This document shows, piece by piece, positions 35,745 to 38,292 of a stretch of 64,000 nucleotides of DNA. Made by a program: the position numbers and the translations under genes. The notes beneath the pieces are model-generated. The model ran no database searches and was not told the DNA's origin. It worked only from the letters and a program-made list of their open reading frames with translations. The stretch is from an uncultured Chloroflexia bacterium (GTDB lineage: Bacteria > Chloroflexota > Dehalococcoidia > DSTF01 > JALHUB01). Numbering within the stretch: the first letter of the stretch is position 1; every line of letters begins with the position of its first letter. The stretch lies in contig CAWIGJ010000003.1 in assembly GCA_963835655.1 (NCBI GenBank), positions 1,314,281-1,378,280 on the forward strand. The letters are read 5' to 3'.

Positions 35745-36431
35745 CTACTCCTGAACCGGCCCGGCCATGACGCCAGGGCTACGAGGCTTGACGATTCCGA
35801 GCGGTAGAAGGTACCGGCCCCAGGTCTCGTTGACAATCTGAGCAAATGATGCGTAGAGCGCGGACCCGGCCGTGAAGAGGCCCTCGTAGCCGGCGATCCT
35901 CTGAATTGTGCTGTTGCCGGTATGCTCACCCAAGGCAAGCAAATAGAACAGGACGGCCAGGGATGCGAATACGGTCATCAGTGCCACGGAAATCCTGACC
36001 GTACCAACGAACATGTAAGTCGTGAAGATTCCCCATCCTATCAGGAACACCGTAATGCCGCCTTTAGCCGACACCGGGTCCAACACGCCATTCTTGATGA
36101 AGATCTCTAGCACAGCGAATGCCAGCCAGAAAGCGCCGAACGAGCTGAAGGCGGTTGCACCAAAGGTATTGTTCTTCTTGAACTCCCACTGGCCGGCGAG
36201 CAACTGAGCTAGACCGCCGTAGAAGAGACCAACCGGCAATACCATTCCGATATCAGAGGCGTTGATGATCTTCGCGTTGACCACGTTCAGCAGGAGCGTG
36301 GTGAGGCCGAAACCGGCGAGACCGAGAGGGGCAGGGTTCGCGATCGTCTCCGTGACCGTGACCGCCTTACCTTTGAGAGCTTCGACTTCTCTTTTTAGGG
36401 CGTCGAGTCTTGCCTCGATGTCGTTTGCCAC
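35745..36431 (-). CDS. satP: GPR1/FUN34/YaaH (SatP) acetate uptake transporter
   Basis: ANPAPLGLAGFG, FYGGLAQ, NTFGATAFSSFGAFW. Confidence 0.92.
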   Translation of the reverse strand: MANDIEARLDALKREVEALKGKAVTVTETIANPAPLGLAGFGLTTLLLNVVNAKIINASDIGMVLPVGLFYGGLAQLLAGQWEFKKNNTFGATAFSSFGAFWLAFAVLEIFIKNGVLDPVSAKGGITVFLIGWGIFTTYMFVGTVRISVALMTVFASLAVLFYLLALGEHTGNSTIQRIAGYEGLFTAGSALYASFAQIVNETWGRYLLPLGIVKPRSPGVMAGPVQE

Positions 36432-36687
36432 GAACGAAACCTCCTATTTCCTTGTTCGCTAGCCGATTGCGTATCGTATATCACGCCTAACGCCTAAAAG
36501 TCCACCGGCTGAGAAGTCGGAATAATAGGCCCGCTCAACGGATCAAGGGGGGACTCTAGCGGCCGCCTGGGTCCGCCAGAAATGACTGGGCACCCGCTCT
36601 CTCGAGCGGATGCCCAGTTCTTGACTCTATTTTCGGATGTTCTTACGGCCGCGTCCGCCTGCCTTCTTGAATCAGGAGGACATTCTC

Positions 36688-37296
36688 CTAGTGGAGGTCC
36701 ACCACACTGTCCAGGCCGGCAGGTGTCGTCCTGGCGATGGTCATGGTGCCACCGAGCGGCGGCTTGACCTCGATAGTGAACGGCTCATTCGGCCCAAGCG
36801 GCGTCGCGAGTACACTACCGGAAAGGTCAACTGTTATTTCCGCCAGCTCGCCCTCTGACAGCAGGCTGTCGGGGGCAGGTGTGACTTTGTCCTCGTCTGG
36901 AACGAGCCATTTGACCGCCCAGCCTATGTTCACTACGTCGTTCGAAGCGTCTCGATAGTCAATGACCATCTTGTTGTTTTGGGCGCTCGGGTCCAGGTTG
37001 ACCGGCTCGCCACCGGCGGCGTTGGCAATGTCGAACACGATGCTGTCGACACTCGTGCCGTCTGTGCTCAGAGCTACAACGCTGCCGCGCAGCTCCAGCG
37101 AACCTTCGGTCTTCTGCAGACCCGAGTAGACGGCCTCTTTGCCTCGCTCTGAGCTGAAAAGACCCGTGCTCAGGACGACGAACGCAAAAACGGTCGCCAC
37201 AACTACGAAGGCGATCAATATGATGGCGGTCTCCAGACCGGTGATGCCTTCCTCTTTCCGACTTACCTTTTTGATTAGACTGAGTAGTTTGCTCAT
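36688..37296 (-). CDS. Archaeal-type flagellin (archaellin, ArlB/FlaB family)
   Basis: Class III leader ...KKVSRKEEG/ITGLETAIILIAFVVVATVFAFVVLSTG; DSLLSEGE; C-terminal FTIEVKPPLGGTMTIARTTP..VVDLH; AGGAGG SD. Confidence 0.92.
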   Translation of the reverse strand: MSKLLSLIKKVSRKEEGITGLETAIILIAFVVVATVFAFVVLSTGLFSSERGKEAVYSGLQKTEGSLELRGSVVALSTDGTSVDSIVFDIANAAGGEPVNLDPSAQNNKMVIDYRDASNDVVNIGWAVKWLVPDEDKVTPAPDSLLSEGELAEITVDLSGSVLATPLGPNEPFTIEVKPPLGGTMTIARTTPAGLDSVVDLH

Positions 37297-37521
37297 GCGC
37301 TCCCTCCTATTCAGAGCAGGGCCTGTGACGCGGCCCACTTCCTCGCCGTTCAGCGAGAACTTGCGGCAGCCGTCCTCCCGGCCACCGCTCCAACCGTTTG
37401 GGGTCTATGTGTGTGTCGATACTCAGCAGGTCTGCATGAAGGGTGTCTACACCCGACTTAGGAAGGGGGATAGCACCTCAATGGATTCGAGGAGGGAGAG
37501 AAGGAATGTAATCCGAATGAG

Positions 37522-37827
37522 CTACCAGATGCCCAGTTCCATCCGGGCCTCTTCGCTCGCCATCGTCTTTGGGTCCCAGGGAGGGCTGAAGGTGAGCGAT
37601 AGTTCGACGTCGCGGACGCCGGGAACGTCGAGCACGGCGGCCCGAATCTGCTCGGCAATGAGCGGAGCGAGCGGACAGGCGGGAGTCGTTAGCGTGTAGG
37701 TGATGCGGACGGTATCGCCGTCAATCTCGATTGCGTAGATAAGCCCGAGGTCAACCACGCTGAGACGCATCTCGGGGTCGTATACGTCCCGCAGGCGTTC
37801 GCGGATTACGTCTTCAGAGAAGCGCAT
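37522..37827 (-). CDS. sufT: Fe-S assembly factor, DUF59/SufT
   Basis: VYDPEMRLSVVDLGLIY, TLTTPACP, PPW. Confidence 0.9.
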   Translation of the reverse strand: MRFSEDVIRERLRDVYDPEMRLSVVDLGLIYAIEIDGDTVRITYTLTTPACPLAPLIAEQIRAAVLDVPGVRDVELSLTFSPPWDPKTMASEEARMELGIW

Positions 37828-37830
37828 GGG

Positions 37831-38292
37831 CTAGCTCCTCGGCGCAGTCTCCTCGCGGCGGGAGAGGAGGTCGAGCAGGGCATGCCAGGCAAGGGTCGCG
37901 CACTTGACGCGAACGGGGTAGCGGGCAACGCCGCTGAAGGCCTCCAGGTCACCGATGTCCTCCGGGGGGGAATGCTCGGGTTCAGTCATCATCTGCGTGA
38001 ATTCGGCGATGAGCGAGCGTGCCTCTTCGATGGTCTTGCCTTTGACCGCTTCGGTCATCATCGAGGCGGAGGCCTGGCTCAGCGAGCAGCCACGGCCCTG
38101 GAATCCGATATCCGCTAGTACGTCACCGTCGAAGTGGCCCTCGACGGCTATCTCATCGCCGCAAAGGGGATTGTAGCCCTCGCCGACCACTTTTGGATCG
38201 GCTACCGGCCGGTGGTTCCGCGGCCGGCGATAGTGATCGAGGATCAGGTCTTTGTAGAGCTCGTCAAGCTCTACTTCGGGCGTTGACGGCAT
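37831..38292 (-). CDS. sufU: SUF-system NifU-like protein SufU
   Basis: LYKDLILDHY.RPRN, NPLCGD, GCSLSQAS, RVKCATL. Confidence 0.93.
   Translation of the reverse strand: MPSTPEVELDELYKDLILDHYRRPRNHRPVADPKVVGEGYNPLCGDEIAVEGHFDGDVLADIGFQGRGCSLSQASASMMTEAVKGKTIEEARSLIAEFTQMMTEPEHSPPEDIGDLEAFSGVARYPVRVKCATLAWHALLDLLSRREETAPRS

Follow-up and report, generated by a model that had tools for sequence, protein, structure and literature searches.

In a 64,000-nucleotide stretch of DNA from an uncultured Chloroflexota bacterium of the class Dehalococcoidia (the window, C3:1314281-1378280 of a genome of 2.49 Mb in five contigs that is 92.5% complete), we found that the gene at positions 36688-37296 of the reverse strand, here called arlB2, is a genuine, intact archaellin gene. 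Very probably its product, ArlB2, is the functional second archaellin of a bacterium for which an archaellum gained by horizontal transfer serves, or can serve, for swimming; the motility of this bacterium is something we infer from sequence. An earlier description of the window made from its letters alone (the sequence-only reading) had presented the gene as a stand-alone archaellin. This holds within the window and fails for the genome, since a complete arl cluster with a paralogous arlB lies on contig C2, and arlB2 is therefore stand-alone at the scale of the window only. The analysis settles arlB2 as a real and intact gene: it is no orphan and no artefact, and a complete machine in another part of the genome serves it. 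The parts of the gene are the following.

36688-37296, reverse strand: arlB2, archaellin gene of 202 codons plus stop, from the open reading frame, PF01917, the match to PDB 9i5h_C and Foldseek
37246-37296, reverse strand: class III signal peptide, codons 1-17, basic, ending in G17, with predicted cleavage between G17 and I18
36691-37245, reverse strand: mature archaellin of 185 aa, with an N-terminal core helix (about residues 20-63) and a C-terminal beta-sandwich domain in the AlphaFold2 model
37300-37308, reverse strand: Shine-Dalgarno sequence AGGAGGGAG of arlB2, seen in the sequence, with little or no variation among 12 syntenic orthologues

PF01917 (Arch_flagellin) is the sole Pfam family that ArlB2 matches at E <= 1 (E 1.3e-26; 94.3 bits, cut-off 29.5), and the match is full length, with residues 17-188 falling on model positions 1-161 of 162. 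The NCBIfam model TIGR02537 of the archaellin/pilin N-terminal domain is likewise passed (29.6 bits, cut-off 20), and every motif quoted in the sequence-only reading for its archaellin was found again, namely G17-ITGLETAIILIAFVVVA, D143-SLLSEGE, IEVKPP and TIARTTP. The bacterial pilin families N_methyl (PF07963) and Flp_Fap (PF04964) gave no match to ArlB2 in the Pfam scan at E <= 1. An AlphaFold2 model built with 28 homologues (mean pLDDT 82.9) has one helix at residues 20-63, followed by eight strands. With this model, Foldseek returned archaellum filament subunits at all of ranks 1-16 and FlaF/FlaG at ranks 18-26, the first pilus appearing at rank 22 (E 1.3e-3). The top match was 9i5h, the bacterial archaellum of Litorilinea aerophila (E 1.6e-18, TM 0.66/0.71, 50% identity), and its chain C is also the best solved relative by sequence (E 9.9e-51; ArlB2 residues 18-201 on 1-182 of the 183-residue chain). 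Thus, profile and predicted structure both favour an archaellin over a generic pilin.

The archaellin-derived stator proteins ArlF and ArlG have an Ig-like beta-sandwich related to archaellins, as ArlB2 does. According to the available text of PMC13319060, however, the stator proteins are without a class III signal peptide, whereas ArlB2 has one, lies outside the arl cluster and matches a full-length filament subunit.

The arlB2 frame opens with an ATG at 37296 and closes with a TAG at 36688-36690. The longest listed frame at this site begins further upstream, at a GTG at 37338; we took the ATG as the start because AGGAGGGAG lies six bases before it, the bacterial Shine-Dalgarno sequence that had already been pointed out, and because the same methionine stands in all 12 syntenic orthologues. 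The leader peptide of 17 residues, six of them lysine or arginine, has G17 as its last residue and is followed by the hydrophobic ITGLETAIILIAFVVVATVFAFVVL. We predict cleavage between G17 and I18, since the solved L. aerophila chain (9i5h) begins at an isoleucine aligned to I18, since the available text of PMC12488501 states that this structure begins at the cleavage site, Ile29, and since G17 and I18 through V31 are invariant across 28 ArlB2 homologues.

The ArlB of L. aerophila (PDB 9i5h; PMC12488501) is, like ArlB2, an archaellin of a bacterial member of the Chloroflexota, and both align end to end. In our own reading of the 9i5h_C alignment, where the residue numbers of PMC12488501 match the chain numbering, of the four residues that the available text assigns to the metal site, two are identical (D127 and E134 align with D143 and E150 of ArlB2) and two differ (D121 aligns with E135, E131 with S147). 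ArlB2 differs further by an extra loop at about residues 133-142, modelled with low pLDDT.

The machine for this subunit is encoded on contig C2, where a complete cluster arlB-orf249-arlG/F-arlH-arlI-arlJ occupies 29.5-36 kb. Its genes, in order, are listed below; L005 is a stretch of this contig.

L005 8414-9445, reverse strand, start provisional; first in the C2 arl region, divergent from the cluster: LuxR-type response regulator
C2:29566-30171: arlB (ArlB1), cluster head
C2:30266-31015 (L005 10266-11015), forward strand: orf249, a 249-aa gene between the cluster arlB and arlG/F
L005 11094-12061: two ArlG/ArlF-like genes, with weak ArlG/ArlF and weak PF01917 matches
C2 arl cluster: ArlH, NF004723, 285 bits, cut-off 194
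C2 arl cluster: ArlI, NF058587 (FlaI/ArlI), 659 bits, cut-off 550
C2 arl cluster: ArlJ, E 4e-125, under its NCBIfam cut-off
C2:36278-37414 (L005 16278-17414), forward strand: Amidase_3 gene (N-acetylmuramoyl-L-alanine amidase), after arlJ, E 1.2e-36

ArlB2 and ArlB1 are identical at 142 of 206 aligned positions (69%), and from G17 to V73 they are identical throughout. The genome holds four PF01917 matches, of which the three others lie at C2:29.6-32 kb; these, as well as all T2SSE, T2SSF and Peptidase_A24 matches, fall outside C3:1314281-1378280, so that no archaellum motor or peptidase gene is present within the window, as had been noted. The genome-wide search that the sequence-only reading had proposed returned the arl set, an A24 peptidase and a Tad-like locus, and its idea of a dispersed extra filament subunit agrees with a complete cluster that carries a 69%-identical arlB. 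Bacterial flagellin gave 0 Flagellin_N matches in the genome. The one Peptidase_A24 (PF01478) match is a 202-aa protein at C3:871840-872151 (L008 1384-1992, reverse strand). CheW and CheA-like matches are found at C2:277-280 kb. Two further filament systems have pilin genes of their own: a type IVa-like locus at C2:759-770 kb with N_methyl pilin genes beside its machine (C2:761177 and C2:767390), and a Tad-like locus at C3:1135-1138 kb with a Flp pilin gene nearby (C3:1130342). The single A24 prepilin peptidase would serve all three systems, archaellum, type IVa-like and Tad-like.

Is the location of arlB2 away from this cluster a peculiarity of one assembly? The gene stands between two conserved neighbours.

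37522-37827, reverse strand: sufT-like gene (FeS_assembly_P), last gene of the suf operon, upstream neighbour, PF01883 E 5.5e-23
35745-36431, reverse strand: satP-type gene (GPR1/FUN34/YaaH), downstream neighbour, PF01184 E 4.3e-46

Further upstream follow sufU, sufS, a Rieske gene and sufD, so the flanks named in the sequence-only reading, satP and the suf operon, are borne out. We compared 18 regions of 12 other genomes, matched to the proteins of this genome, and found the order sufD-Rieske-sufS-sufU-sufT-arlB-satP in seven of the 12: G001, G002, G003, G004 and G008, which belong to the same genus, and G010 and G013, which represent two other genera. The G010 locus is a variant in which the Rieske gene was unmatched and satP lies about 2 kb further on. 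All seven genomes carry a second arlB that heads a LuxR<>arlB-orf249-arlG/F-arlH-arlI-arlJ-amidase cluster, and in the single-contig genomes G003 and G008 both loci lie on one chromosome. A chimeric join, which the earlier description had named as an outcome that would overturn it, is therefore refuted, and the sufT-arlB-satP position is old and conserved. The closest homologues of ArlB2 are all in Dehalococcoidia/Chloroflexota records, with 76-55% identity among the 120 matches listed and Dehalococcoidia wherever the record was named; an arlB homologue is present in 34 of 41 related genomes, this genome counted.

In G010 (L059, G010:C19:340001-360000), a single contig carries the suf-arlB-satP locus and, at a distance of only about 10 kb, the arl cluster. 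Such a close layout may be ancestral, in which case later rearrangements would have parted both loci in the genus of the window. Elsewhere a tandem arlB pair stands at the cluster head, in G009 and G011 (same family, other genera) and in G040 (another family).

Both arlB copies descend, as we read them, from an old duplication that was followed by partial gene conversion. In a tree of 22 rows, which left out two G009 tandem copies and the second copies of G012 and G015, the 18 arlB copies of the family group in a single clade (support 100/100) that is separate from the tandem pairs of G011 and G040. In this tree, suf-linked and cluster-linked copies are not reciprocally monophyletic, with five changes needed per label; a constraint that unites the eight suf-linked copies lowers the fit by 35 log-likelihood units at a borderline p-AU of 0.055, and the two copies of G003 pair with each other (support 94/91). 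Because the two kinds of copy are mixed in the tree, we took orthology from position and from the locus-specific signal-peptide codons instead. The latter differ more between paralogues (pN 0.30-0.33, Nei-Gojobori) than between copies at the same position (0.16-0.26). In the core helix the pattern is reversed: pS has a median of 0.32 within genomes, down to 0.11, versus 0.40-0.51 between genomes. It is this greater likeness of core codons within than between genomes, together with the mixed tree, that suggests the conversion. In G008 and G004, the core-helix pS between the genome's own two copies is 0.11-0.17.

Across 28 pairs of syntenic orthologues, pN/pS was 0.036/0.40 for core-helix codons and 0.18/0.51 for those of the outer domain; by these codon comparisons arlB2 is under purifying selection, from which we conclude that it is used. 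There are eight within-genome pairs, and that of the present genome is the most diverged of them in the outer domain (pN 0.28, residues 76-202), and ArlB1 and ArlB2 each have an insertion of their own.

Are the two separated archaellin genes under common control? About 145 nt before the start codon of arlB2 lies a sequence that links both loci.

37441-37478, no strand assigned: bipartite palindromic element, two 14-bp GGGTG-N4-CACCC sites with starts 24 bp apart, candidate operator

The whole genome holds two exact single sites and only two pairs (spacing 23-25, at most 4 mismatches), and both pairs stand upstream of an arlB gene, one at 37441-37478 and one at C2:29338-29375, before the cluster arlB. 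Among 881 kb of fetched loci the pair occurs in 33 loci, in all but L130 just upstream of arlB, and the upstream alignments show the element also kept before syntenic and cluster-linked arlB genes of relatives. Counted by context over the arlB genes of loci L069-L135, the element is distributed as follows.

Cluster head beside a LuxR-type gene: 9 of 9, and also one further head on a cluster truncated by a contig end
Cluster head without a LuxR-type gene: 0 of 16
suf-linked arlB copy: 6 of 8
Solitary arlB copy, no LuxR-type gene beside it: 2 of 31
Tandem arlB copy: 0 of 8

In at least one of the two suf-linked misses the element is just over the mismatch limit. The two solitary loci that carry it, L100 and L119, belong to one record. 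Beyond the element and one 11-mer, the upstream regions of the two arlB genes of this genome share no significant similarity (local score 22; shuffles mean 17.7, maximum 28). On this evidence the element is in all likelihood a real cis-regulatory site, and it probably puts both arlB genes under one regulator. Whether the LuxR-type regulator beside the cluster binds it is close to an even call, with the balance slightly on the side of doubt. In the main texts of PMC12488501 and PMC13319060, the words LuxR, response regulator and promoter are not present, nor are transcription and CsrA in that of PMC12488501.

Between this element and the start codon, the transcript of arlB2 would carry a conserved and structured leader.

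37297-37440, reverse strand: conserved 5' leader of about 140 nt, from the element to the start codon, from alignment and consensus structure
37364-37387, reverse strand: leader hairpin with a 9-bp stem and a GGA-containing loop, helix 2 of the consensus

The leaders of 12 suf-linked copies have a mean column identity of 75%. They fold into a consensus of 25 pairs, in which 94.3% of cells are paired, against 42-51% with partners slid, and six pairs show compensatory change, a count reached by 0 of 500 shuffles; the structure was predicted from the same alignment used in the tests, a circumstance that biases these values in its favour. In the hairpin, 97.2% of cells are paired, five of the nine pairs show changes on both sides, and GGA stands in the loop of nine of the 12 sequences as read from the alignment. 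A CUCC-GGAG pairing covers the Shine-Dalgarno sequence. Rfam gave no match at E <= 1 on 36000-38000.

Taken together, the following path from gene to filament can be proposed. The precursor of ArlB2 would insert into the membrane via its hydrophobic N-terminus, and the single A24 prepilin peptidase (C3:871840-872151) would cut before I18 and so take off the class III signal peptide of 17 residues. Encoded at C2:29.5-36 kb together with ArlH and the ArlG/F stator, the ArlI ATPase and the ArlJ platform would then add the mature 185-aa subunit at the base of the filament. Since G17-V73 are identical in both subunits, ArlB1 and ArlB2 should fit the same helical core, with outward-facing beta-sandwich domains that differ, and we prefer co-polymerisation of ArlB2 with ArlB1 over an alternative use of the two. 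Transcription of both genes would be joined by the shared element under one regulator, for which the LuxR-type response regulator divergent from the arl cluster is the likeliest candidate. Several archaellin chains per filament entry are known from Methanocaldococcus villosus (7ofq, chains A and B) and Halobacterium salinarum (9eq7, chains J, A and B), filaments that we take to be heteropolymers. These Archaea resemble our bacterium in having paralogues and differ from it in host domain and envelope.

Several points weigh against this account. According to the available text of PMC12488501, no filaments were seen in cultured strains of SAR202 that have archaellum genes, whereas L. aerophila does swim, its archaellum being built from ArlB; a filament is therefore plausible and not guaranteed. 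A look-up of sequencing runs for this stretch returned three DNA runs with small shares (0.04-0.11) and no RNA run, which speaks neither for nor against expression. The A24 peptidase is short (202 aa) and has no NCBIfam match; it may be a PibD-like or a TadV/PilD-like enzyme. Arch_fla_DE and CheF had no Pfam match in the genome, so that coupling to chemotaxis is unclear; the absence of CheF agrees with its absence in Chloroflexota as given in the available text of PMC13747009. As to regulation, the palindrome motif was derived from these same upstream regions; the informative points are only that the rest of the genome lacks it and how it is distributed among relatives. The co-occurrence of element and LuxR-type gene is phylogenetically confounded, the genomes being kin and the sets L051-L068 and L069-L135 sharing genomes in part. 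Seen along the direction of the gene, the element has opposite orientations at the two arlB loci, and a sigma-70 consensus scan of 36300-37700 returned 0 promoter-like sites.

How else could the second archaellin be used? It might be an alternative subunit that replaces ArlB1 by condition, or a source of surface variation against phages or grazers, with the same motor in either case. Condition-specific archaellin paralogues in haloarchaea are a precedent, and the combination of an identical core (G17-V73) with the highest outer-domain divergence of the eight within-genome pairs and an insertion in each copy is what such a role would lead one to expect. In addition, the leaders of both genes are unrelated apart from the palindrome, which leaves room for different post-transcriptional control. 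The shared upstream element, however, favours joint over exclusive transcription, and the signs of gene conversion (core pS and mixed tree) point to copies that are kept alike. We regard this as the less likely use, although one that deserves a place beside co-polymerisation. A role in a minor, specialised segment of the filament, e.g. a cell-proximal hook-like or capping part, is known for minor archaellins in methanogens, and a separate locus with a separate leader could set another dose. We consider it improbable for ArlB2, which is full length, aligns end to end with a bulk-filament archaellin, shows nothing structurally distinct and is read from a strong Shine-Dalgarno sequence.

As its other option, to apply should the motor genes be missing, the sequence-only reading had offered an archaellin co-opted into a different type IV filament machine. 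Both a Tad-like and a type IVa-like machine do exist, and only one A24 peptidase was found for all three systems, but the cognate ArlH, ArlI and ArlJ are present, the two other machines have their own pilin genes, and the core helix of ArlB2 is that of ArlB1; there is very little to be said for a fibre of this kind. Equally hard to maintain is a decaying or silent duplicate without function: the frame is intact, three genera share its position and start, pN/pS stays far under 1, and conservation extends to the Shine-Dalgarno sequence, the structure of the leader and the upstream element. An artefact of assembly, whether a chimeric join or archaeal contamination, could be suspected from a five-contig assembly with arl cluster and arlB2 on different contigs and from a GC content at the gene (0.575-0.593) slightly under that of the genome (0.617). 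Given the same gene order in seven other genomes and closest homologues in Dehalococcoidia/Chloroflexota, we give this explanation practically no weight. The preferred reading thus stays that of a functional second archaellin used together with ArlB1.

How does arlB2 compare with what has been described? Archaella in Chloroflexota and flaB copies scattered off the cluster in Dehalococcoidia have already been published, as the available texts of PMC12488501 and PMC10444878 show, in keeping with the remark of the earlier description that archaellum genes in this phylum are not new. PMC12488501 counts 244 clusters across Chloroflexota genomes with an archaellum. With a full motor cluster elsewhere in the genome, arlB2 is therefore ordinary for its lineage. 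In the filamentous bacterium L. aerophila (Caldilineae/Anaerolineae class), arlB heads the arl cluster, whereas arlB2 stands away from it, beside suf, as one of two paralogues. 'Candidatus Lucifugimonas marina' (SAR202, Dehalococcoidia; PMC10444878, available text) likewise has extra archaellin genes away from a flaB-flaGFHIJ cluster, with the PF01478 peptidase elsewhere; it has six tandem and six scattered flaB, compared with one cluster and one dispersed copy here. Neither a fixed position such as sufT-arlB-satP nor a shared palindrome is mentioned for it in that part of the text. The constant place beside suf, the palindrome common to both genes and the structured leader add a little to this and make no new category, and the weight of the discovery is small, since functional Chloroflexota archaella, multiple arlB and scattered flaB are all published. 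What arlB2 offers is a dispersed paralogue kept like the cluster copy by apparent gene conversion and fixed beside the suf operon across three genera. With the candidate operator and the candidate response regulator, it can be tested in a concrete case how an archaeal machine obtained by horizontal transfer is connected to the regulation of a bacterium.

We speculate further on a picture with two layers, in which a NarL/LuxR-type regulator on the palindrome unites both arlB genes in one regulon and the leader adds a post-transcriptional layer, possibly read by CsrA. The whole picture is more doubtful than its first layer; if true, it would mean bacterial regulatory circuitry grafted onto an archaeal motility gene. 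The control of bacterial flagellin by CsrA is the analogy for such a reading of the leader. That CsrA takes part in the control of arlB2 is improbable in our view, the GGA motifs in the leader being what suggests it. A CsrA gene is present (69.9 bits), FliW had no match in the genome, and CsrA occurs in 41 of 41 relatives, including seven without an arlB match, so that its co-occurrence with arlB is uninformative. The typical CsrA gene directly follows a NarL/LuxR-type response regulator gene at C2:674.5-675.9 kb (L136 312-1701). A second, weaker CsrA-like match at C3:542177-542395 consists of two stretches in one 127-aa frame.

At the other end of the gene, the transcript may be terminated before satP by a predicted hairpin.

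36586-36617, reverse strand: terminator-like hairpin with a 14-bp stem, a 4-nt loop and a weak U tract behind it, about 70 nt past the stop codon

The fold of 36540-36700 (reverse strand) has -75.1 kcal/mol (z -5.3, 0 of 200 shuffles as good). The consensus terminator scan did not list this hairpin, and the one terminator-like site that it did list equals the shuffled expectation of 1.0.

A species-representative collection returned 67 arlB loci, which overlap in part with the fetched genomes and were searched for marker genes within flanks of about 5 kb: 24 loci have an arl context, nine a suf and/or satP context and 34 no marker genes. Solitary archaellin genes, without arl, suf or satP markers in these flanks, thus make up 34 of the 67 loci and appear common across Dehalococcoidia. 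In two more distant Dehalococcoidia (L097 and L098), the order is LuxR<>arlB-orf249-arlG-arlF-arlJ-amidase, with arlJ directly after arlF; arlH and arlI had no match in these fetched stretches and are either elsewhere or lost.

Two genes of the arl cluster deserve a final remark. orf249 had no Pfam or NCBIfam match. Its position is conserved, with 50-60% identity within the family and 36-37% in G009 and G011, and it gave a weak Atlas match (score 0.86) to a cluster with Arch_fla_DE in 11% of its members; it may be a diverged ArlC/D/E-like switch protein. The amidase, a word absent from the main texts of both Litorilinea papers (PMC12488501, PMC13319060), could open the peptidoglycan for the archaellum. 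Its gene follows arlJ in every cluster of the family with a fetched 3' end, and also in L097 and L098.

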